Shown: positions 3,068 to 38,129 of the stretch, one piece after another
How positions within the stretch are numbered: the stretch's first letter is position 1
Layout of the letters: the number at the start of each line of letters is the position of its first letter
Source: Paecilomyces variotii
Lineage: Eukaryota
Reading direction: 5' to 3' (one strand)
DNA: 64,000 bases
Assembly (NCBI GenBank): GCA_004022145.1
Contig: RCNU01000006.1
Translations under genes and position numbers: made by a program
The notes under the pieces: generated by a model
The model's database searches: none
The model's input: only the letters and a program-made list of their open reading frames with translations
What the model was told of the DNA's origin: nothing

Positions 3068-4861
3068 TCACTCCTCCAAAGACGCCTCCCACAAACACCT
3101 CTCGCACAAACACATTCCGCCCAACGCTCCCCTCGCCCACTCCCTCCTCTCCTTGACACTCAATCCAATATCGCAATAATGATTTAGAATCTCCTCATCT
3201 TTCTTGATGCCCCCTCTGTTCCTTCTGCTCTCCCGCCCATCTTTCTCCTTCCACATCGCCCTCTCCTCCGTCGTTCGCGCCATGAAGGTAATCTCTGCAC
3301 CCCACTCCCACCTTACATTCGGATCGCACGAATGGTTGGCGAGACACCAGAGCGGATGCACGGCGCAGACTTCGGGGCCACCGTCCCATGTGGACAGACG
3401 GCCTGAGGCGGTGCCGCGGAATTTGGCATAGAGCGTATTCAGGACCCAGGTGTCGTAGAGAGGGAGAGTGGCGAAGGGGTCGAGACCCATTTCTTCAAGG
3501 ATGCGCATCGGTTGAAGGATGGAGAGTTGGAATGAGAACGGAAGGGTGGAAGTTGGGTCCGATTCCCAGGGCAGCAGGGTCTGTTCGGTAGATGTTGCTG
3601 ATGGTGAAATGACGGTAGAGGAGGACGGGAGATCATGGAAGTCTCCCCAGATGTATTTCACCTCGGGCAATTCGAGGGGATGAACCTCCTGCGTAGCTGC
3701 CATGGCAATAGCTCGGCCCAGGAGCAAAAGGTATAAGTAATCCGCCTTGTCTTTGGGATCAGGAATATCTTTCCCGATAGACTCGAGTCCTTCCTGTCCG
3801 CAGACAGCGGCGTGGTATACCTCCTGTGCGCGATCGTGACATTCCTGGCTGCAGAAGATGGTATCGTCGCACTCTATGCATGCAACAGGGGGGTTTCCTG
3901 ACGAGAGTTCAGGCAGAGGACCATTGCAAGCGTCGCACAGGTCGTCGTGTAGACGATTTGTTGCTGTCAAAAGGGACGTTTCTCGCAGGATGATCTCGCC
4001 AGGTGCGATGTCTTCTTTGGCGAAGAGACCTAGCTGGATTGATACCTCCTCGTTTGCGTTTTTGGTTTCGTCTTGTCCATCCTTCTTGGACCCATGGGAA
4101 GGATGGTCATTATGCAAAGCCGGCAATGAGACAGCTCTGACCTCACACTTTGGAGCAACATCTCCCAACCTCTCATTCAGCAACTGCAGCGTATCGGCTG
4201 CTTTGCGATCCGGCTCGTGTTCGTTCCATGGATACAGGACTCTGCGAGCGTATCCTTGAGCGTTGAGTGTTGTTGGGTTCAATTGGACTTCTTTTTCAGC
4301 TTCACCATCATCAGCAGCGGCAGAATTACTGCCTCTCCTTCTTCTCCGCTCCTGAATTGCTGAGATCCTCTTAATCTTCTCCATCTCCTCCTTCAGCCCA
4401 ATTTCCTCGCTCTTCACCAAATCACCATCACCATCAGCAAGGAGATTCATCCCACGAAGACAAAACTCATACGCATCGCGCAGGCATCCACAACGAACAA
4501 GACTCCTCACAAGAAGCCCATACACATCTCCTATAGAAGAATCGTATTCTTCTTGGGATGTCGGTGTAAAGTTTTCCTCCTCATCATCATCCTCTTCCTC
4601 CCCATCGCCCTCATCACGCTTCTCTTTCTCCTGCTCTTCCTGCTCCGTTACATCCTTCCTCTTTCTAGCCAAAAACTCACACCCATCCGGGTCAACCACG
4701 GACTCAAATAGAGTTAGAGCCCTATACGCATCCGCAGCCGCGAGGTCCGGATATCCCAATTGCTCGTGAATGCGACCGCGCTCTAGATGTAGGAGCGGGT
4801 TATGCGGATCCCCGTATAATCGGGCGGTTGCTTCTTCGCGGTGTTTGAGTGCGAGATCCAT
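3068..4861 (-). CDS. SET-MYND (SMYD/Set5-like) lysine methyltransferase
   Basis: Intronless 597 aa; GLFAKEDI, MYND-like CDAC..CIEC..FCSQEC..H..C, NHSCDPN, post-SET CLCERC. Confidence 0.85.
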   Translation of the reverse strand: MDLALKHREEATARLYGDPHNPLLHLERGRIHEQLGYPDLAAADAYRALTLFESVVDPDGCEFLARKRKDVTEQEEQEKEKRDEGDGEEEDDDEEENFTPTSQEEYDSSIGDVYGLLVRSLVRCGCLRDAYEFCLRGMNLLADGDGDLVKSEEIGLKEEMEKIKRISAIQERRRRRGSNSAAADDGEAEKEVQLNPTTLNAQGYARRVLYPWNEHEPDRKAADTLQLLNERLGDVAPKCEVRAVSLPALHNDHPSHGSKKDGQDETKNANEEVSIQLGLFAKEDIAPGEIILRETSLLTATNRLHDDLCDACNGPLPELSSGNPPVACIECDDTIFCSQECHDRAQEVYHAAVCGQEGLESIGKDIPDPKDKADYLYLLLLGRAIAMAATQEVHPLELPEVKYIWGDFHDLPSSSTVISPSATSTEQTLLPWESDPTSTLPFSFQLSILQPMRILEEMGLDPFATLPLYDTWVLNTLYAKFRGTASGRLSTWDGGPEVCAVHPLWCLANHSCDPNVRWEWGAEITFMARTTEERAMWKEKDGRESRRNRGGIKKDEEILNHYCDIGLSVKERREWARGALGGMCLCERCLWEASLEE

Positions 4862-5018
4862 TATACAGAGAATAATGAGAGATAATGGATAGGGGTCTAT
4901 TTTTCGCTCCTTCTCTTTTCCTTTCCTTGATCTGCCAAATCTGTCTTCAAAAAAGAAAATTCAAGTTCTTCCAGGAGATCCACCGCAAGCCCTCGAATTT
5001 TCGAAAAGAGAGGAGAAC

Positions 5019-5019
<1 letters not shown>

Positions 5020-5082
<63 letters not shown>
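5020..5082. repeat. 63-nt poly(dA:dT) tract
   Basis: Uninterrupted A run about 160 bp upstream of the SET gene start. Confidence 0.95.
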
Positions 5083-5085
<3 letters not shown>

Positions 5086-5751
5086 ATGAACCCCAAAAAG
5101 TCTTATCGGGTACGATCCAGCTCGACCCCTCCAAACAGGGCTTGTGATACTGTTCCGAAAAAAAGTAAAAATCTCCCCTTAAATCCTTTTCCTTTCAAGG
5201 AATCAGAACTCTCCGCAGCTTATCATAAAAAATCGGCTGCCCCGTTCGCCACTTGTGGTTATTTTTACCTGTTTTCCCCGCAATCTTCGTTGGATTTTTT
5301 TTTATGCTTTTCGGAAATTCGATATCACGTGATTACTTTAATTTACCTATCTGGAAGATCTTGATGCTGGTAAAGAGGTAATTATGATATTCTTTTCCCC
5401 CTGGTCTGTATTATACTTTTTTATTGGACATATCTGGTTTGAATATGGTTTCGTTTTAACGGTGGATATGTTTGTGATGCATTTGGAAAAGCGTTAAACA
5501 GTACCTTAGGTAGTCTCCAAGTTAATTATATCCGAGTGCCCACTCTGCCAAACTAATAGTATACCTACTGTTCATCCGGATTATAGTTAGAATGGTGGAA
5601 GGTAAGAATCGTACTGCAGCTAAATGACGCAAGATGCCAATCAGATAAGGCCAACTTGGCTTGAATTGTGTATAGAAAGTGCAGCATTGGTATAGGCCGC
5701 GCTACAACATATGACTTAATCTAACAAAAGCAAACTATCCCTTGCCATAGA

Positions 5752-6600
5752 CTAGAAATCACCGAAATATCTTCGGCGAGTCTCTTCCATTTCTAGCTCC
5801 TTAGGCATCGGCTCAAGAAATTTATCAATCTCATCACGCCAGAAATAGTTCTGCGGGTTCACTTGACAAGCAGTAGTGTATTCCCAATATGATGGATACC
5901 ATCCAGCTGTCTCCCAGTCAATAATACCGACAATTTCATCTCCAGAAGCTAGAATATTCAAGCTGCTAAGATCACCATGCGTAAATTTCAGCGGCCAGCT
6001 ACTCTGTTGCTGAACGATGAGTTCCTGTAACTCCGGGTCAAGATTTGGATCCAGGTATATGCCTTGACGTAAATGGGTATGAAAATCTTGAACATTGCTA
6101 AATGGTCCAAAATTCAGTGAGGGTCCTGGTAATCGACAGTCATATAGAGATTCGCCATTGATATTTGCAATGCCACATCCGTCAGGAGGAATAAGACTCC
6201 TCATCTCTTGGATCATCTGCTTTAGTTGTGATAAAACCTTCGCCTTTGATTCCTCACTTCGATCCATCCATCCAACTCCAATCTTGTCGCCATGAATCAT
6301 TTCCATGAGGATATAGGTCCAGCCGTGATGTTCGAAGGCGCAGAAGATCTTAGGCACAGGAATGGATGTATGGCTGGAGATATAACGCATCGTCGAAGCT
6401 TCAGAGAGCTGGACAAGTGGTCCATACTTGATACACAAACTTCGAGAGACGAAAAGAACGCTCCCCTTATGCGGCCGTATATGTTTCAGGAGTTTGATGG
6501 CCGCTAAGATAAGAAATCGGTGTAGAAGAGTGTCGTTAACAGAAGATGAATGAGTGGTGGATGAAGGGCAATGAATTTTAGATTTAAAACTGTCTGGCAT
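5752..6600 (-). CDS. Aminoglycoside-phosphotransferase/choline-kinase-like (APH) protein
   Basis: Intronless 282 aa; EASTMRYI..TSIPVPKI, Brenner motif FTHGDLSSLNIL, GIIDWETAGWYPSYWEY. Confidence 0.88.
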   Translation of the reverse strand: MPDSFKSKIHCPSSTTHSSSVNDTLLHRFLILAAIKLLKHIRPHKGSVLFVSRSLCIKYGPLVQLSEASTMRYISSHTSIPVPKIFCAFEHHGWTYILMEMIHGDKIGVGWMDRSEESKAKVLSQLKQMIQEMRSLIPPDGCGIANINGESLYDCRLPGPSLNFGPFSNVQDFHTHLRQGIYLDPNLDPELQELIVQQQSSWPLKFTHGDLSSLNILASGDEIVGIIDWETAGWYPSYWEYTTACQVNPQNYFWRDEIDKFLEPMPKELEMEETRRRYFGDF

Positions 6601-7236
6601 TCGGATTTATCAACATGTACCGGTCAAAAAGATCAAATTTATCGTGCAGGAGCAGCAGCATTATAGAATGAACACTTATGGTTGTTGTAGAGGCAAGTTA
6701 TGCTAGAGCTGTGGACGATGAAGAACGGCTGATCAATGGCTGGGAGATTTGGTTTATCCGTGCCGTGAGATCTGCTGTCCCGTTTCCCTGGTCTCTCTGG
6801 GATAGACAGAAAAGAAGGCCACAACTGACAGAGCTTAATAGCAACTAAAAGTTGCTGTGCACATGTTTAGCCAGTAATAAGAAAAGAACTCGATTTCAAG
6901 CCTGTGGCGCACTCTGAGCAAGTGTTATTCAGCACCGAGATCCTTAAAACTCTTCTATACAGACTTCTTCCATCTTCTATCTGAAACGGCTGTTTATTTG
7001 ATTGATGAGAATGCACCGGTTCTCGTCTACCGCCATTCTAAAGCCAGAAGCCTTTGACCTCGCGGTGTGATGAACAAAGCAGACTTCTGACTATCCCACT
7101 ATCACAAATAGAATTAATGGGTTGAGTTTTATTTTTATTGTCAAGATCCTCCATATAACATCTCCCTCCTCCAGGCCCAACCACCCTATCAACCCGAACA
7201 CGACCCCAATCCCAGGTTAAATCCGTCTGATATCGT

Positions 7237-7243
7237 TATATAA
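7237..7243 (+). promoter_or_regulatory. TATA box of the 5S rRNA gene
   Basis: TATATAA at -30 to -24 from the 5S start, the position known for dispersed filamentous-fungal 5S genes. Confidence 0.7.
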
Positions 7244-7266
7244 TCTTGGTTAGACAGGAAACTACC

Positions 7267-7385
7267 ACATACGACCATAGGGTGTGGAAAATAGGGCTTC
7301 CCGTCCGCTCAGCCGTACTCAAGCCACACGCCGGCAGGTTAGTAGTTGGGTGGGTGACCACCAGCGAATCCCTGCTGTTGTATGT
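7267..7385 (+). rRNA. 5S rRNA gene, full length (119 nt), dispersed copy
   Basis: ACATACGACCATAGGGTGTGG...GTTAGTAGTTGGGTGGGTGACCACCAGCGAATCCCTGCTGTTGTATGT; ends pair (ACATACGAC/GTTGTATGT). Confidence 0.97.
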
Positions 7386-7395
7386 TTTTATTTTT
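7385..7395 (+). terminator. RNA polymerase III oligo-T terminator
   Basis: TTTTTATTTTT directly after the 5S 3' end. Confidence 0.8.
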
Positions 7396-7792
7396 ATTGT
7401 TCCTACTCTACTTACTTTCTTTGGGTTCTTTTTCACAAAAAGGGAAGCCATATGGGGGTCGAGATATCGATGAAGGTATAAATGATGGGATGATCCGTTC
7501 TGGATACAGTCTCAGCGTATATTTATCGGGTCTCTTTTTCGGGGTTTCTCTTTGTTACAGCAAATTGGGTAGTTGAGTATGCTAGGAATCATACGCGGAT
7601 GTGCAAGGATTGAGACGGTTTTTTGGATCCGGGCGCCTTTTTCGTTTCGAATATTGCATTATATCATTAACTAGCACTCATGTTCACCGCTAGAATGCAT
7701 CGGTTATCAAACCAGATACAGAAAGTGCCAGCCCTTTCCTATAGGAACACAAGAAGTGAGATTCAATTGACGAACAGAAGACAGTTCCTGAT

Positions 7793-8675
7793 TTATCTCC
7801 TGCCACACGGCAACCCTGCCAAACCGAAAGCCCTAACTGCAAATGAATTTTCGGTTATAGGCTCGATTTCATCGGGATCATCTGGCGTGATACCAGAGAA
7901 CCCCACCAGAGACCTTTCCATTGCCATCAGTAATGTGAGAAGATACTCAGGAACTTGAAACGTACGTGTGCATTGATCCTCGTTCAAAAAATAGATGGTC
8001 TTTGCTAGGGAAGTCGTAGTACCATCCTCGCTGACGCATGTGTCTTAGTCCTAGCGTTAGCTGATGTAAAGACAGTTGTATACAGTTAAGGATACTTACT
8101 CGAGTATTCCTGCAAGTTGCTGGCGAATGGTATTGATCTCCTTCTTGCTGAACTTAGAGAAAGTAGTAACAGGGGATCCGGGAACTTTCGACATTGCGAT
8201 GGCGTGCAAGTAACCTCCAGGATATAGATCACTCGGATCTGCTTGAATTAGCTCGTCTTTGCCGTAGAGTATGGGCGTTGCATGATTTTCAGTTTGGCAA
8301 CTCTCTAAACAGTGAACTTCTTCCTTGAACCAATCTTCCGCCATCTCCAGTATGGTGGGTCTGTCCGATTCGAGGATCGGCCTAGGGTCCATTCTTCACA
8401 TACATATATCAGTCAGCAGAATGGTACCGGAGCCACATGGTCTCTTCATGGATCAGTGGAGAATATTAGCTCGTAACTCACTCAAAACGAAGCTTTAGGA
8501 TCACTTTTTCCTGATTGTCTGTTTTCTTCGCCTCGAAAACAGCAACTCTTTGAACAAACTCAGGGACATACTTTTCAGAGAGAACGCGTTCTATCAGGTA
8601 TTCATGATTTTGCACACATAGAATCTTTCTCTCATATCTGCTGAGGATGCAGCCGTTAGGGAAATGGGATTCCAT
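7793..8675 (-). CDS. Fungal protein-kinase-like (probable pseudokinase) protein, ~230 aa, 4 exons
   Basis: Exons 8675-8482, 8393-8100, ~8043-7964, ~7911-7793 splice in frame; VILKLRFE, EVHCLE, YPGGYLHAIAMSKVPG resemble a kinase N-lobe/hinge. Confidence 0.65.
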
Positions 8676-8748
8676 GACGGGAGAGTATGAGAAGTCTAGG
8701 GAGAGTAGTGACGATGACAGAACGAGAGTTGACGTTATAGGGGCAGAC

Positions 8749-8964
8749 AAGTGGAGCAGGAAAGGAAATCCAGAAATGATCAAGGGAGAGATAATAACAA
8801 TAAATGAGGGGGGATGTTAAGAGATATGACAATCTTTACGCACGTGACACCAAAGAGGTCTTCTACGCTACCCAAAGTTTAGAAAGCTTGGTCAACTCTT
8901 CAAGGACAATAAAACCGCGGTTTAAATGGCTTCTGCCTTGATCGCCTAATCCAGACGAGTAGTA
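8749..8964 (+). repeat. Repeat R1 copy 1
   Basis: Aligns with 11273-11494; identical 38-mer CTACGCTACCCAAAGTTTAGAAAGCTTGGTCAACTCTT at 8863 and 11392. Confidence 0.92.
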
Positions 8965-9478
8965 TTCCTGCAGGCATTGTAATATGTATACTAGGCCGCC
9001 TTACTATATGTACCTAGGTACCTCTCTAGGAGTAATATAACTTAGAAATGTATCCGTCGCAAGCTATTAACAGTCGTTTCGGTCGTTGCTACTATCTGTC
9101 TAGTAATCTAGGCCACTTCCTATTCTATCGGTCAGTCAATTATTAGTCCTATTATATCTGGCATTATAAATAGCGGTTTTGACACTATTGTTCCTATTTG
9201 CAGAGCCAGTGCACAAAACGTGAAAGCCAAGGAAGAAGTATCATCATCATCTGGGTCTACATCGCCATGGGAATTGCAGCTGCCGGTTTGGTCAACTACA
9301 GCCTGTCCCATATATCACTAAACGAAGTTGCCTTCTGTTTTCATTTCCTTACTATAATACACGACGTGCTAAAGAAGACAGAGATTCGTACACTCGACAC
9401 ACTAAGCCTGTTAACCTTCCATCGTGCAATACGCAAACTAATTGTCGAAAGTCAGAGTATTAAACCATTGTTCTACGC

Positions 9479-10346
9479 TTATAGAGCTTGCACTTTCCAT
9501 TTTCCTGATGTCTGGATGCAATTGTCAGTCTCACAATCATTACTTATGCAAAACAACGTGTAACTTACCAGACTGTCCCCGGTCCTTCTCGAATACCGCC
9601 ACTTCTCACCAGCCATATGCGCTATGGCTAAGAAGCATTCCCGTAGGCTTACCTGACCGAACTCATGGGATGATACCGAATCGTGATTGATCACTGGGGA
9701 TACCTGGAAAGTGTATTTCCCCGTCCGCTTGAGGAACACGGTTTCATTATAAGTCGAGTAGAACCCATAGAGGGTCTCGTTATCATCCATGTATCTTGCT
9801 ACTTGGCCTATTTTCATTCTTAGTATACTTCAATGACTTTTTAAAGGGATTTTTTTACCTAATAACTTGGCCAGCTTCTTCGGAGTCACATTAAGGCCCG
9901 TTGTCCAAGGTGCTTTCATCTCGTCAACAATCCATATTGTGCCCGGATCTTTATTGCATTGGACAGTGCTATCTGCCACTGTCCTCGACGACTTTCCATA
10001 AAGAGGCGTGCCAGCTTGAGGGTCTCCAAAAGTGAGACCTGGACCTATTTTTTTCTAAAAATGGGTGCAGTGGTATTCAGAGGTTATTGACAAAGCGGCC
10101 AGAGACACCAATCTCATTTCCAACAACGTAGCATTCAGAGCGGGTAATGGGACCATGGTTTCTAGGTTTTCTGTAATATCGATTCGTATGCCGTCTTATT
10201 TCATCCAGAAGGTTTGTCCACGGAGAAATCTGGTCTTTAGACAGTTTGTGACGGCTACGGGCTGGCCCAGTGCCATACCCGTCTCGGACTTTCAGTTCAG
10301 GCACCTGCATGGGGGCCCATATGTCGGTGAAGTCTGTAGGTGCCAT
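9479..10346 (-). pseudogene. PD-(D/E)xK restriction-endonuclease-fold (Crinkler-REase-like) gene, disrupted
   Basis: Reconstructed motifs VVGNEIGVSGRF, TFGD, IVDEMKAPWT, LGQVARYM, YGFYSTYNETVFLKR, VSLRECFL; two introns; in-frame TGA at 10077-10079 and a +1 frameshift in an A7 run near 10050. Confidence 0.7.
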
Positions 10347-10839
10347 TGTTCGAGTTCGAGTATTCTTAAAAACCGTAATGCAGTATTGGATTGAATGATG
10401 ATGGATTTTGCAGAATATAGCTGCAGAGGCTTTGAATGTTGACGATATTACGCGTATCGTGTTGGTGTTGTCAGTTGACTTCCGTTGAGACCAACGGCTG
10501 GTACGAATTATTTGCCCTGACAGCAGCACAGTAGCCCTCGAAGTGGCTGGGAGAACAGAATGGGGGGAAGTGGGAAGTGTTGCAGTGAGTGAATGCGTTA
10601 GTGGCGATAGGAACGCAGCTATGTTATCTTAGTAACACTTAGGCTTCTTTGTTATAACTCATTTGATCTTTCCTGTGACTTACGAAGGAAGTTTCCTGAA
10701 CTTGAGAATACATGAATATTTTTGGAATCCCTTGCTGTTAAATGTGTTACGACTTCTAATTGACTAGATGTTCATTCTAAAGGACAATTCCATCGATTAC
10801 TTTCTCCAGGCGGCACTTAGGGAGCTACTAACTGTAGAG

Positions 10840-10904
10840 AAGCCACACGCCGGCAGGTTAGTAGTTGGGTAGGCAACTACCAGCGAATCCCTGCTGTTGT
10901 ATGT
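10840..10904 (+). pseudogene. 3' half of a 5S rRNA gene (nt 55-119)
   Basis: 61/65 identical to 7321-7385; 5' 54 nt absent; followed by an oligo-T run and a homologous flank. Confidence 0.93.
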
Positions 10905-11163
10905 TTTTACTTTATTTTATTTATCCTACTTACTTTCTTTGGATTCTTTCTAATTCGTCCCCGTATTCAGAGATGGCGTGGGAAGTCCCCAAACCTACGC
11001 TGACTTCGTTACGTGGATCAGCCATGTATCTAAACCCACCTACTGTACTGTAGCCCTCGACTCAATCACCATTACTATCCACCCTCGTAACCCTCCCTCA
11101 GGACCCCTCCGGTTCCGCTTTCTCGCGCCTCGGCATGGAGGCTGTGTATCGAAGCTTCGATGC

Positions 11164-11272
11164 AGACGGCAATGTGCCAATATCATAGAATGTTGAGTCG
11201 CGAGCCCCGAAGAGATCGCAGAAGTACTGAATCACTTCCCGAAGTCATACAGGGAGAAATCTGAGGAAGCTA
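11164..11272 (+). repeat. Repeat R2 copy 1 (gene fragment with internal stop)
   Basis: Aligns with 13013-13134; reads NIIEC*VASPEEIAEVLNHFPKSYREK. Confidence 0.85.
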
Positions 11273-11494
11273 AAGTAGAGCAGGAAAACGAAATCTAGAA
11301 TCATCAAGGGAGAGAAGGGAGAGAAGGGAGATATTAGAATATAATCTTCTTGACACAATCTATATGCATATAACACTAAAATTCAAGATGCCTACGCTAC
11401 CCAAAGTTTAGAAAGCTTGGTCAACTCTTTTAAGTACAAGAAAACCGCGGTTCAAATAGCTTCTACCTTGATCACCTAATCTAGACGAGTAGTA
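11273..11494 (+). repeat. Repeat R1 copy 2 (RIP-like mutated)
   Basis: Aligns with 8749-8964 with many C>T/G>A changes; weak homology resumes at ~11545-11580 after an insertion. Confidence 0.92.
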
Positions 11495-11804
11495 GTCTTA
11501 TCAATAATTATTTAGAGGTTATCAATAACCTAGGTAGTCAAATTCTCCTGGAGGCACCCTCGTTTGTAATATACATACATACTTGGAAAAATTATACCAG
11601 GGATTCTACGACGGCGCGGCCAAAACCGTAGGAAAGGCACACTAAGCACCGATGACCTAGAAAATAGGACTGGCATCAAGACCACCTGATAATACAAAAT
11701 AAAAAAATCCGTATAGAAACAGATAATTCTATTTCTCTATACACTATACACAAGCAAGCTCAATTCAATCGCCTCTTGTCTGCATATGGTTGACTCCTAT
11801 TTCC

Positions 11805-12288
11805 TTAGACGATTTCGGGGTGATGGCCTGCCTGGTATGCTGCATTATTGAAAGCCGACTGGTCCTTTCGGTGTTTTTCCTGGTAAGCCGGCCCAAAGGC
11901 AGCCATCGCAATTTGGGTCAATTCGGTACCTCTGGCCTCCAGAATCGACTTTTCATTACTCCATTGGGGATACTATGAGTGGAGTAGAAAGGTTAAGACA
12001 TGCTATCTTCACAGACTTGCGATACTCAGTAAAGATTAAACATGGACTTACGTTCTGGACCACCCAAGTTCCAAAGTTATCAGAGGTGAAGCCTTCGTCC
12101 TTGCTGTCCTTGTATTCTTTCCGTGCATCTTTATCCACAGATTCGAACTGTTTGAGGGCATCCTGGTACTTTGTCTTTGCATTCTCAAGACGATCTGAAA
12201 AAGAGTTGTTGGTAATGGTGAGACCATCAAAATTTGTTCGGAATGCGTACTTGGACGCGTCAAATGGAACGTCAATTGCGTTGAGCAT
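11805..12288 (-). CDS. Small uncharacterised protein (~134 aa), 2 exons
   Basis: Exon 1 MLNAIDVPF...GTWVVQN, GTAAGT...TAG intron, exon 2 YPQWSNEKSILEARG...HHPEIV*; frame intact across the intron. Confidence 0.7.
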
Positions 12289-13012
12289 TTTGGCGAGTGA
12301 GGAGGACTCCGAAATGAGTTATTATTTGGGATAGTCAGATAAATGCTCGAGGTGGAAGAGGGGTTAGAGGGGTACTTTATACTACGATACTAACCCGGAT
12401 GTTTTCAGCTCCACATGTTCATGTTGAGTAGATATTGTGTTCAGCTAAGTGGGTATACTTAAGAACAAACAAATAGGGTTCGATGTTTCCCGCAGGAAAT
12501 GACGACGTAGCCTTCGGTGATCCTGGATCTATTAGCGGTGTCGATCACAAAGAGATCGAACTGATTAGCGAAGGTGAAATAATGTATGAGGCATTTTTTA
12601 GTATATGCTAAAGTTACTTAGTTGAAAGTAACCTGTTTATCGCATAAGTCAAGCGCTGAACGGCTTCAGCCAGCCACCAACTCAACTTCACCTATATGCA
12701 TACACGTCATAGATATGGAGAGCGATAGCTGGAAATTCCATAGTCTAATTACAAATTACTCTGTACACTATTATAGTTCTCTTTACATTAGCTTAAGTTG
12801 GTGATTCCGCCAAAAGTTCATGTTAACTTGTATTATAAGGCGCCTTTCCTTTTAGTAGAGCACATAATGCAATAAATATCACTTCACAATATTTGACTAA
12901 GTAAGTATCTCAATCGATTTATTCTTGCCGAATCGAGCCTGTCTCATATGTCATGGTGAGCTCATTATAGCCACTACCGCAGCGATCTATTAAATGCATA
13001 AACATCGAAAAG

Positions 13013-13134
13013 AGACGACAATGTACAGTACCAATATCATAGGATATCGAGCCGCGAGCCCTGAAGAGATCGTTGAAGTACTGGATATCTTCCCGAAATC
13101 ATACAGGGAGAAGTTTGAGTGGAAGTGGAAGCTA
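13013..13134 (+). repeat. Repeat R2 copy 2 (gene fragment)
   Basis: Reads NIIGYRAASPEEIVEVLDIFPKSYREKFE; aligns with 11164-11272. Confidence 0.85.
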
Positions 13135-13586
13135 GAAGAGATTGGTGGGAGGGAAAGGACGAGGAGTTGTTACATCCTCCGAGACATATTATACCCAAGT
13201 TTAAGGATGATGGAGGTAAGGATGGAGAAATTAGGAGCCAGAGGGCAATAGAAACAGCTTTAAATATGGGGTTGTAAAGTAGGTGTCTCATTCTGCATCA
13301 CTTTCACATGTTATTTCAATCGTTCTATGCTATCTTTTCGTGTAGTTGCGGCGTGAATGCAATTTATCTTTGATACTGGTGTCCATAATGCATCTTGAAA
13401 CGTGCCTGGATAAGAAAATGACAAGGCAGAAGGGAAATGGGACACATTCAGTCATGGAAACAGGTAGGTCCTCCTAAATCGAGACGTGGCGGGACATGAT
13501 CCGAACAAGATTCTATCTTCTGGGATTAACATCTCAAGATAGAGAAAGTATTACCAAGACCAGCGGGGAATATAAGAAAACGACCA

Positions 13587-16500
13587 CTACATGACCTGGA
13601 CAACAGTGTCAGCGATTGAGAATGCAGCTGGAAAATGCAGGACTTACAGTGCAATTCTCATCCAAAACAATGGTAGTGCCTTCGCCCACTTCCCCGCCGA
13701 GGGCAGCAATACCACCAAGGGTCTGTCGCTGCCTCAAAGTTGCAGCTAGACGGGAAAGCATACTCCTCTATACAATAGAAGAAGCTGTTAGCATTCTTGT
13801 TATGGTAAAATTCCCCTTTTTAAACATACCGTAACGAATGCCTCCGTCATACCACCCTGTCGGTCAACGTCGTTTCGGCTCATGATCTGATAGCTGTCTT
13901 GCATCCGCTTGCGACTCTTGAGACCAAGACCGGAAACTCCATGTCTTCCAAGAGTGTTTGCGGCATTGTCAGGATCCAAAATATTCTTGCCTGCATGCGC
14001 TTCACCCTGAGCTCGTCTGTCAGGAGAGAAGATCTTGATGGTGTTGTCGATTCCAGAACATGCAACGGTGGGCTCGTAGGGGTGGCCTGAGAAAATCAGT
14101 AAGAATCAAAAATCAAGTTTCAGTCTGGCAGAGCCGTCTTCCTTACCTTCAATCACGTTGACCACCTCACCATCCCCTTCAAGGATATTGACCAAGTTGG
14201 AGGTCTTGCGGTCCCAGATGAATAAATGACCAGAATCGCTTCCACTGACCACATACTCATCATCCAATCCGAAGTAATTCACGTCTTTGACGGTCTTGAC
14301 ATTACAATGTCCCCGATAGACCCTGGTATGCGACGAACAGGGCACATCACGGTGGACGTTTTCTCTTCTCCTGCTGCTTTGGAAACCAGTTTGTCTGAAG
14401 AAGATGTCTTCCTCAGATTCTAACTCGTCCTCATCGTCTTCAGATTCATCATCCTCGTCATCCTGGTCACTCTCGCCGTCCTCAGATTCTTCGCCTTGAT
14501 CATCGTCACTGTTTCCCTCATCATCACCATCAGACTGCAACGCTTGTGGCATCTCGACATCAGAGCTAGAGAATGCAGCCACTTCGTCATCCGGCCCAGA
14601 GTCCGCAGAAGATCCACCGTTTGATGCGGTCATCCGAGAAGTGGACGTATCCTGGGAGTGCGACGAACTTCGACGAGCCGCAGAAGCGCGGCCTCTGATG
14701 AGACGGACTTCCTCAACGGGCTCCTCCTCTTCATCAGGATCAATATCTTCCTGCACTCGTTCCCGCTCATCATCGTCATCCTTATCCTCCTCGACACTAG
14801 TTCTTAGTCCACCAAAAGCGCGATTCACAAGCTCAAAATTCACGCCGTCACCTGCTTGCATAAGAATACTCCTGCCAACTTTCAAACCCCAGAATCTCAT
14901 TGCTGCGCGGCGATCCATTGCACGGACATTTGATGGGCATGGTCTTTCTTCGCCATCTTCCACTCTCACGCTCGCTCCGTCAAGATCCTCCAGGGGTATC
15001 TTTATGGCGTTGGCAAAGGATTTCACTGCTGAAGATTGAGTGTCAAAGACAATGCGAGATTCATCACGCTCGAACCTCGACGCATCCACATTGACCACAG
15101 GCGCTGATCCTGCCAGTTCTTCGAGATAAGGGATTAGAATCTCTTCAATCGCTTCATCGCCCGCCGACTGCGGAACAGGAAACCGTGCTCTGTCACGCCT
15201 GCGCGCAGGATCATACTTGAAACCATTAAGGAGAGCCTGCCGGTCGCCTTCCAGCCAAAGCAAAATCGCTTTCAAAAAGTCATATCCAAACTGGGACTCT
15301 GAATCTATGATGCCGTGTTCTGTCGGAGCGGGTTCAATCTGCCTGAACATCTCTAGTTGGGGGCTTTCCCCGCCTGATGCTGTCTGCAGCCGCCCTCCTA
15401 AGACACGGGCCAGTGTACCTGCCGCTTGTACAAACCGTCTTGTAGATTCCCTGTTGCGACGGAGAGTTTGCTGGAAGATAACTTCGTCGGGCGTCGGATT
15501 GACCGGATACCTCCAAGTTCTAATGGTCTCATCCATTTCCGGCAAATAAGAGGCCGCATAGCCTAGGGCTGAAGTGAAAGATGCGGTGTACGGGGTGATA
15601 TCTGCAGAATCCTGTTGAGATTCCGCGGCTTCCCTCACAGAAGCCTCGAGTGAAAACAAAGTCTTCCGGAGCTTCACCAGGGCCTTTGCAATACGGTAGC
15701 TTAGGCGCTGGGCCTCGTTGAGAACAGAATACCGTGCCCTCTCCATGACGTCTTCTGGCGTATCGGAGCTTCGACGAGAAAGCGAGGGGATAGGGATATC
15801 CTCCGACTCCCCATTGCCGTAGCGTACCCGGAATGACATACTATCACCTTCGTCGGATTCGGAACGCATGCGGGAATGATGCCTGTTACCGCTGTCAAGA
15901 GAGGTCATCGAGGTCTTCTTCCGCTTGCGCTTCCTGTCCTTCGAGTGTCTCCTCCTCCCAGAATGGTTGCCATTCCGCAACGTCTCCTCCCTCTCCTGCG
16001 CTTCTCGCGCGTCGGGGCTTTGAATCAGATCAAAGCTGTAGATATGATCTCCAGACCAGCTGACCACCATCTCGTTCGGATTGGCATCACTGATCTTACA
16101 CGCCGTGATATGCCCATTGTCATTGCGCCGCATCTTTCTCCTTCCATTCGGAGCAAATCGCCGGACACACCTGGTCGCCTGTCCCATCGTCTCATCCTCC
16201 GGAGTGCCCGGTGCTGGTGACGGACTACCAGGGTCGCCTTTCTCCGCGAGGAGATCTCGACCCAGCATCCGCCTGTCGTGAAGAAAACAGTGGAGGTGAG
16301 CGCCTCCCAACGCGATATAATGTGGCTGACTGCTGGAACAGGAAATGGTGTTCAGGTCCAGTTGATACCGTTTATAAGATATCAAGGGAGGAGGCACGTT
16401 GGAGTCGTCATGCTGGAGTCCAGGTCTGTAGGCCATGAAGCCCTGACCACCCCGCGGCGAAGGGTATGCTGACGACGGCTGCCGTAGATCCCACTGACGA

Positions 16501-17265
16501 ACCTCGCCATCCTCCGAACAGGTCATAAAGAGATACGGAGACGACTCGGTGACGACCCGCTTCACCCTATCGGCGTGGGACCGGTAGACCCGTGCGTTTG
16601 TATTACCCGCAGTCAGGTAGCGTGCTCCAGCGAAGAAGTTATTGAAACGGCGACTTCTCGCAGAGGCCTCGAATGCCGAGGAAGCAGCTCCGTTGCCATT
16701 TCCTGAGGAATATTCAATGTCAAACACACGAACCTGCGCGTCGCCAGCACACGTGACCAACGTCTGGTCATTCGAATGCGGCATGAATTTCACGGAGAAA
16801 ATGTTGGCGGAGTGACCAGTAGCCACAGTCGTATTCAGCGCAAATGGAGCGGTCGACGAGTCGGGCTGGTAAGAGTAGATGTTGAGATGCTGGTCATCGG
16901 ATCCCGATGCCAGCAACCGCCCTGAGCGAGACCAGCTGGTTGAGTGTCAGAGCCCAAGTTCATTCTAGCCATCGCAGTGGAAGACAGTAGAAGATCGACG
17001 AGTGGAAAAAGCAAGAAAAGGAAGAAACGAAGAAAAACCGGATTTGCAACGATTTGATAGTAGAAGGAGGCCGTGGAACAACACCAGGCCACTGCGGAGG
17101 ACCTTACCTGAGGGCATTTACGCAGCCTGTGTGACCACCCAGTTCGTTCACGATATCTAAGTCGTCGATCCACTCTCTGGCTCCATAGATACCCGGTATA
17201 CCTGCATAGTGGGACGTCTCCCCGGTTTCCCGCCGGAGCAGGCGATCATATAATGAGGGCTTCAT
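13587..17265 (-). CDS. DCAF6/DCAF8 (Iqw1-like) WD40 substrate receptor of CUL4-DDB1
   Basis: 5 exons; ELGGHTGCVNALSW, LASGSDD, GHSANIFSVKF, YRGHCNVKTVKDVNYFG, VSGSDSGHLFIWD, GHPYEPTVACSGID. Confidence 0.88.
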
Positions 17266-37869: not shown

Positions 37870-38083
37870 TCGATCACGGCCAAACCGCCACATTAGAAGC
37901 ATAAACTTTTTCCCCCTTATCATTACATGGTTCATGGTTCTATTTAGCAGTTACCAAGCTTATAAGACGGCGTTTTGTGCATTTGTTTCCTTCACTTTTT
38001 TATCTTTTTTATTTTTAGCATTAGCATATTCAAACTCACCAGTTTGCATTCATAATCAATGATAATCTCATGTTCTGAAAGAG

Positions 38084-38129
<46 letters not shown>
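38084..38129. repeat. 46-nt poly(dA:dT) tract
   Basis: Uninterrupted A run between convergent gene ends. Confidence 0.95.

Follow-up and report, generated by a model that had tools for sequence, protein, structure and literature searches.

Bacterial genomic islands, integrative and conjugative elements and prophages integrate in the 3' part of transfer RNA (tRNA) or transfer-messenger RNA genes and restore their target. A layout of this kind, in which cargo separates an intact small-RNA gene from a directly repeated copy of its 3' part, is present in a 64,000 nucleotide (nt) stretch of Paecilomyces variotii DNA (contig RCNU01000006.1 of assembly GCA_004022145.1, hereafter the window), where a complete 5S ribosomal RNA (rRNA) gene is followed 3.5 kb downstream by a copy of its 3' half. 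An earlier note on this DNA had read the segment between them as a small recombinase-less cassette that supplies its own 5S 3' half and terminator and so restores its target. Here, the evidence supports the view that the half gene, at 10840–10904, is the relic of a site-specific event rather than a random fragment. The locus differs from the bacterial tRNA islands in that its host is a eukaryote, no integrase adjoins the gene and the element does not recur as a unit. In addition, the repeat continues for 46 nt past the gene, a second repeat comes after it, and an empty site was not seen.

The Starship elements of fungi insert at at least five distinct internal sites of the 5S gene, and degraded copies of them occur, according to the available text of PMC11162782 and bioRxiv 2024.06.28.601215. 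Together with the available text of PMC9156397, these sources give their direct repeats as 6–16 bp and describe the target gene as fragmented. Voyager, members of the Enterprise family such as Osiris of Aspergillus fumigatus, and the Arwing family are named as inserting in 5S genes in those parts of the literature that were accessible; PMC11623301 does not mention ribosomal DNA targets. As far as these descriptions go, the present locus is like the 5S-inserting Starships in having a strand-specific junction at a fixed internal 5S position, with accessory genes on the element side and other 5S copies nearby, and degraded copies are a known feature of the Starships. It differs from them in having neither a captain (DUF3435) gene nor a left end; the remnant measures at most 3.5 kb, with only its right end recognisable. 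The repeat in the window is 111 nt, against the 6–16 bp reported in the accessible descriptions, and the 5S gene upstream of the remnant is intact, not broken up.

Truncated 5S pseudogenes of filamentous fungi, which are under birth-and-death evolution, are the third comparison (PMC5555474 and PMC9156397, in their available text, citing Rooney and Ward 2005). Like these, as described there, the fragment in the window is a non-folding piece of 5S beside dispersed functional copies, with transition-rich decay. Unlike them, it belongs to a set with a fixed break and a conserved, 5S-derived sequence on its left, found in two species.

The intact 5S gene and the half gene

The complete 5S gene is located at 7267–7386 on the + strand and matches RF00001 of Rfam over model positions 1–120 with 82.3 bits (gathering score, 38). 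A TATA-like box, TATATAAT, was identified from the sequence at 7237–7244 (+), about 30 nt 5' of the gene, and T-runs at the gene's end start from 7385, in agreement with the promoter and terminator that the earlier note had assigned to it. Full 5S units of a related fungus have TATATA at the corresponding position. In the contigs of same-species sequencing runs, the bin of the window containing this gene has about 70 times the single-copy depth; the gene is therefore a member of a large family.

Repeat R1 contains the 3' part of this gene. Its copy A, at 7321–7431 (+), is made up of 5S nt 55–119 and 46 nt of flank. Copy B, at 10840–10949 (+), begins 3519 nt 3' of the start of copy A in unchanged orientation, and has 5S nt 55–119 with four transitions, followed by the flank; it forms the right-hand junction. 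The presence of the downstream copy is upheld by within-window comparison, in which the two are 88.3% identical over 111 columns (E 9e-33). The 5S part of the repeat, which in copy B is the half gene, is identical at 61 of 65 positions, with all four mismatches being transitions, and the flank part at 35 of 45. The motif that had been noticed at an equal distance from the 5S end in both copies (7408–7431 and 10926–10949) agrees at 23 of 24 positions. The direct repeat equals the 3' part of the target gene, and the whole gene stands at one end.

Likeness between the copies of R1 sets in abruptly at 7321/10840 and ends past 7431/10949. The abrupt 5' break described earlier holds for this onset, although the 10 nt to the left of 10840 have a weak likeness to 5S nt 45–54 (5 of 10), and in the related loci L042/L057 and L023/L056, described below, the alignment with 5S starts already from nt 46–47. 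The break is therefore not perfectly sharp. No second 5S piece was found in the 64-kb window by a permissive Rfam scan, in which 10840–10904 misses even an E of 1. Likewise, a blastn-short search of the window with 5S nt 1–54 returned only the intact gene and chance matches of 14 nt or less. An identity of 10–12 nt to 5S nt 34–43 at 9720–9729, within the coding sequence of the gene here called gene Y, was rejected as a chance match in coding DNA.

Recurrence of the break and of the sequence before it

The break at 5S nt 54/55 is found elsewhere in this species. Two contigs of the same-species run X19 start matching at 7321 and have unlike DNA before this point, and runs X15 and X17 each have one contig that matches only 10809–10913, which is the half gene with 31 nt to its left and the T-run to its right. 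In all, among the loose contig ends that were listed, at least three same-species contigs other than that of the window start at the nt-55 position. Metagenome contigs were also scanned for 5S nt 55–84 preceded by a base other than C, which gave 66 loci, mostly from two assemblies that have many identical loci in common; an earlier scan of metagenomes with the exact junction pattern gave no matches. In the related fungus, here called the second fungus, 23 BLAST hits start past nt 15, of which 15 end at the edge of the contig sequence. The 8 internal hits represent five distinct loci, starting at nt 46, 47 or 55. The expectation that other half copies would share the break is therefore borne out by the same-species contigs and by all five of these loci, and insertion in the same target in a strand-specific manner, which is characteristic of Starships, is seen at several places.

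All five of the internal half copies in the second fungus are preceded by a conserved sequence of 30–60 nt, here called x. The DNA shared by these five loci and the window extends from −31 to −115 through +53 to +84, with nothing shared beyond it on either side. In the window a decayed x precedes 5S nt 55 at 10809–10839 (+), where BLAST aligns it to L023 with 82% identity from −31 to +53. A manual letter count gives 20 matching letters out of 30 between the X19 loose end and the L015 copy of x, and 23 out of 30 between the X15 loose end and the 30-nt stretch that precedes x in L042.

The sequence x is itself an inverted copy of 5S nt 71–99 in four of the five loci, with a score that at most 1 in 300 shuffles reach; in L007 this inverted match is not significant. 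A hairpin between x and 5S nt 71–99 can be drawn in L057, L015 and L020 and not in the window, with an energy that is not clearly below that of shuffled sequences (z −2.1 to −0.07). Ahead of x, loci L042 and L023 have DNA with homology to the sequence that normally lies upstream in full 5S units. In L057, x divides an accessory-type metabolic cluster (Aminotran_4, DAO, PhyH, SDR) from a core gene (Cns1/TTC4). A full 5S gene is located within 2 kb of two of the five half units. Among the loci of the second fungus, no synteny with the SET–WD40 interval that holds the segment and no relatives of its two genes were found, and there is no inverted or second copy of x in the window.

The recurrence of the nt 54/55 break together with the conserved x suggests that the half gene is the right junction of a family of 5S-targeting elements. 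Because x is conserved across two fungi at a fixed 5S site with accessory genes on one side, it resembles the end of a site-specific cargo element, and the family is most likely to be Starship-like.

Two of the second-fungus loci have further features of their own. At 2382–2613 of L007, x is followed by a degenerate half 5S (nt 55–113, 84%) and, about 50 nt on, by a complete 5S with its TATA region. Six tRNA genes, each with an Rfam score of 65.8 bits, are packed into 5 kb of L020 (4724–9715), on that side of the x-half unit where the element would lie; this cluster looks like carried cargo.

The earlier note had taken it that dispersed 5S genes do not normally have common flanks. This does not apply to the second fungus, in which at least eight pairs of distinct 5S loci share 28–150 nt downstream. 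Many of its full 5S genes (L051, L041, L011, L005, L030, L044 and others) also have a common upstream region, at about 130–55 nt, that contains recurring motifs resembling TCTCACCC, together with a TATATA box. The 5S genes of this fungus should therefore be seen as sitting in a conserved unit of about 300 nt, rather than between unrelated flanks.

Copy number and strain comparison

Copy number was taken from the depth of the contigs of same-species runs at 80% likeness, and loose ends from the rows listed. Bins across 9684–10779 have a depth of 1.4–2.4 times single copy, variant contigs are present at 9992–10238, and contig breaks occur from 9962. From depth, variant contigs and breaks, the part with paralogues in the genome is 9962–10839 (+), which is likely to be the stump of the element. 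The remainder to its left, 7396–9961, is single copy in four runs, bar one 38-mer that it has in common with the repeat R2 described below. This single-copy state, and the presence of R2 beyond the half gene, disfavour a 3.5-kb self-supplying cassette. The proposal that 7321–10839 is a small mobile unit carrying its own 3' half is therefore not sustained, as it does not predict R2.

That the segment is recombinase-less was confirmed: a Pfam scan found no recombinase or DUF3435 in any of the 11 open reading frames (ORFs) of at least 300 amino acids (aa) in the window, and Pfam recombinases were absent also from 9 ORFs of 85–289 aa and 9 ORF pieces within 5752–12318.

Of 24 public runs listed, 20 contain 0.97–0.98 of the sampled words of 4601–14600 and the other four contain 0.02 or less; there are no partial carriers. 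Four runs from four studies were aligned over 5300–13500, and all have the segment with 0–1 differing letters per piece, making them near-clonal with the window. No contig bridging 7321–10839 was found in these four near-identical runs, and the four joints listed are 5S-internal or trivial. The empty site that had been expected among strains was not seen in any of the 20 carrier runs; as the aligned runs are near-identical to the window, this has little bearing on an empty site elsewhere in the species. Positions 7296–7365, 10538–10602 and 10866–10878 are uncovered by the listed pieces, and no meaning is attached to this. About 45 nt at 11596–11640 are common to one or two other contigs in X16, X17 and X19, with loose ends on both sides.

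Local repeats

A second repeat, R2, lies colinear with R1, and both pairs of copies are oriented alike. Its copy A is at 8740–8991 (+) and its copy B at 11264–11520 (+), beyond the half gene. The copies are 75% identical over 233 columns (E 2e-35), with 177 of 244 positions identical in a MAFFT alignment. Copy B has decayed in a manner like that of repeat-induced point mutation (RIP): from A to B there are 19 G>A and 11 C>T substitutions, against 8 A>G and 2 T>C in reverse, making 30 in the RIP direction versus 10. A third repeat, R3, has a copy B at 11174–11265 (+) that is 85% identical over 92 nt to its copy C at 13028–13119 (+), with 72% over 29 aa by tblastn.

In the rows listed, other 5S copies depart from the window flank at 7388–7398, and a paralogous x locus departs at 10913. 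Because these leave the flank so early, copies A and B of R1 are specifically related to each other. Divergence amounts to 4 of 65 positions in the half gene, against about 27% in R2, which weakly suggests that the half gene was functional for a time after duplication. No remnant of a third 5S unit was found upstream of R3 copy C, the region of the gene here called gene X has no similarity to 10950–11263, and no second copy of gene Y was found downstream in the window. A transition-tolerant Smith-Waterman comparison was mis-calibrated, with null scores equal to those observed, and its banded version gave no signal over control diagonals.

Origin of the half gene

The reading that is favoured here, to which about an even chance is given, is that an element once inserted in the downstream copy of a locally duplicated 5S unit was cut back by a deletion to the stump in which the segment ends. 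An older local duplication would have copied a 5S unit consisting of gene, flank and R2. An element aimed at about nt 45–55 of 5S, Starship-like in carrying cargo, encoding a tyrosine recombinase and moving through a circular intermediate, would then have inserted in the downstream member. A later deletion may have taken the 5' half of that member and the rest of the element, and RIP-like transitions may have eroded the downstream copies. The stump would extend over at most about 9479–10839, with gene Y and x and without the recombinase. The upstream intact 5S would be a neighbour from the duplication and not a gene rebuilt by the insert. In this account the repeats, the recurring break with x before it, the copy numbers and the missing recombinase are observations; the assignment to Starships, the succession of events and the deletion are its conditional parts.

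Several observations weigh against it. There is no recombinase gene and no left end was found, and the Starship label is therefore unproven. The 5' half of the supposed second 5S is absent from the window and would have to have existed formerly. The paralogue evidence rests on contig depth at 80% likeness and on listed loose ends, and neither an empty site nor an allele of another structure turned up among the near-clonal runs. Taken alone, x in the window is weak: 29 of 2000 random 31-mers sum to as high a score against the five other copies, and the inverted match of this x to 5S lacks significance (p 0.14). The homology upstream of x in L042 and L023 also fits a degenerate 5S attachment site or a family of rearranged pseudogenes. 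The spacers between R1 and R2 are unrelated in the two copies, at 1.3 kb and 0.3 kb, no homology past R2 was found in the window comparison, and R2 and R3, with three local occurrences, could be fragments of transposable elements. The body between the repeats is 3.4 kb with two small genes, rather than the large cargo, tens of kb long, that is typical of Starships, and could be a remnant.

Target-restoring integration, the form in which the earlier note would survive, is unlikely, though of the alternatives it is the most probable by a small margin. The attachment site of the element would be a degenerate 5S unit, with x on one side and the 3' half and terminator on the other, so that integration would leave the left junction with a complete gene and the right one with x and a promoter-less half. 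The layout is exactly that of intact gene, cargo and 3' partial repeat, and the window has no 5' half other than that of the intact gene. With x being 5S-derived and, in L042 and L023, preceded by a homologue of the 5S upstream region, the end of the element looks like a half 5S unit. Starships are also reported to move through a circle in the available text of bioRxiv 10.64898/2026.09.21.753150. Against this stand the single-copy left 2.6 kb (7396–9961) with gene X, and the R2 copy past the half gene, which is unexplained unless the element arose at this locus. In the second fungus, four half units have no full 5S within 4–12 kb upstream, and none of the 10 ORFs scanned, out of 45 candidates lying downstream of full 5S genes, is a recombinase. 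The published 5S-targeting Starships, as far as described in the accessible text, have 6–16 bp direct repeats and a fragmented gene. The half units may instead owe nothing to cargo elements and be a rearranged 5S pseudogene, in which promoter and 5' half were swapped for an inverted piece of the 3' half, and which spread by the ordinary process of 5S dispersal or by gene conversion into existing 5S genes. The units are indeed short, with likeness ending 31–115 nt upstream and at the 5S end, L042 and L023 retain the ordinary 5S upstream region, and truncated 5S pseudogenes are described as common in filamentous fungi (PMC5555474, in its available text, citing Rooney and Ward 2005). This is slightly less probable than a restored target. 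Against it, x is kept between two species to a degree (20 of 30 and 23 of 30 by manual count) unexpected of dead DNA, the unit in L057 sits precisely where an accessory cluster meets a core gene, and about 0.9 kb to the left of x in the window also has paralogues.

A repair product is doubtful to much the same degree, and ranks just after the pseudogene. An element in a single 5S gene would have suffered a break that was mended from an empty homologue or sister chromatid, with the 3' half, flank and downstream DNA copied beside the 5' half and rejoining taking place within the element. The result would be a rebuilt gene, a duplicated right flank with R1 and R2, and a shortened element. One event followed by decay would cover the colinearity of R1 and R2, the RIP-like changes, the lost left part and the single 5' half. 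It has no direct evidence, and it requires an extra deletion of about 1 kb because gene X is in copy A only; furthermore the half gene (4 of 65) is less diverged than R2 (about 27%), which is unexpected if both evolved neutrally together. A plain tandem duplication of 7321–10839 with a chance breakpoint in 5S and later deletions, which the earlier note had named among the findings that would refute its reading, would give the direct repeats, their tandem orientation and the colinearity of R1 and R2. Yet only R1 and R2 match, with no second gene Y downstream and no homology past R2, and the break recurs with homologous sequence to its left in this genome and in the second fungus. This recurrence of the junction effectively excludes it, and its probability is very small indeed.

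With the stump of a deleted element as the favoured reading, the integration-junction interpretation stands in that the half gene is a site-specific junction and falls in that the mobile, self-supplying cassette does not hold; the 3.5-kb segment is not shown to be a mobile unit or to rebuild its target.

Genes in and around the segment

The segment contains two small genes. Gene X, at 7793–8680 (−), is at single-copy depth and encodes a small kinase-like protein of 228 aa. This protein is identical to P0039, which is found on 12 contigs and is part of a cluster of 14 sequence variants, 11 of which are named from P. variotii strains. Variants of gene X are present in 20-odd public assemblies, and strains more diverged than the aligned runs therefore exist. 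It has no Pfam match; its look-alikes in the Atlas are APH/Kdo/Bud32-like.

Gene Y, at 9479–10346 (−), encodes a 240-aa protein of a SPOK2_N-like/fungal-kinase N-terminal type family. Its exons correspond letter for letter to P0001, a hypothetical protein of Paecilomyces variotii. There was no match to it in Pfam or in a sequence search of the PDB, and a sequence search for relatives gave nothing beyond gene Y's own entry and two fragments of exon size. In the Atlas, Ascomycete proteins of 234–258 aa resemble it, and SPOK2_N is assigned to 11% of one cluster, which weakly suggests a link to spore-killer and fungal-kinase proteins by way of their N-terminal domain. The public model of the gene requires an intron of 37 nt (10055–10091) between exons 1 and 2; there may be a frameshift in the gene, and the model is possibly forced.

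With an APH-family phosphotransferase at 5752–6606 (−), genes X and Y form a kinase-related trio flanking the 5S gene. Logan has a fragment of each of these two genes, X and Y; both fragments are several percent diverged, and the longest contig is 2765 nt in either case, which is no more than a hint that the pair also lies together in a more distant relative. The remainder of the window contains core genes, including SET (3068–4960), WD40 (14106–16946), 6-phosphogluconolactonase, RRM, MIF4G/MA3 and helicase genes. Two A-runs of about 50–60 nt, at 4997–5082 just past the SET-domain gene and at 38070–38129, match each other; the first may represent the tail of a retroposon or else a simple repeat.

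Implications

The locus is a recognisable relic of a known type of event, rather than a demonstrated self-repairing cassette. A useful by-product of its analysis is the signature x, with its derivation from 5S. There are hints in this derivation that the attachment site of the element mimics its target. It is possible, though improbable, that the x-half units are the right junctions of a family with a crippled-5S attachment site, the integration of which regenerates a working 5S at the left. If so, this would be a eukaryotic counterpart of integration by tRNA islands, against the published view that the gene is fragmented, and 5S-targeting elements would be harmless to their target and able to use it again. 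No published report of a 5S gene regenerated by such an insertion was found in the literature searched, which covered main texts from a part of the journals.

If the favoured reading of an element stump is true, the window would contain another relic of 5S-targeted insertion, in a fungus that is used as a laboratory model for Starships. Being 5S-derived and present at a fixed 5S position in two species, x is a short signature with which such elements and their stumps can be searched for.

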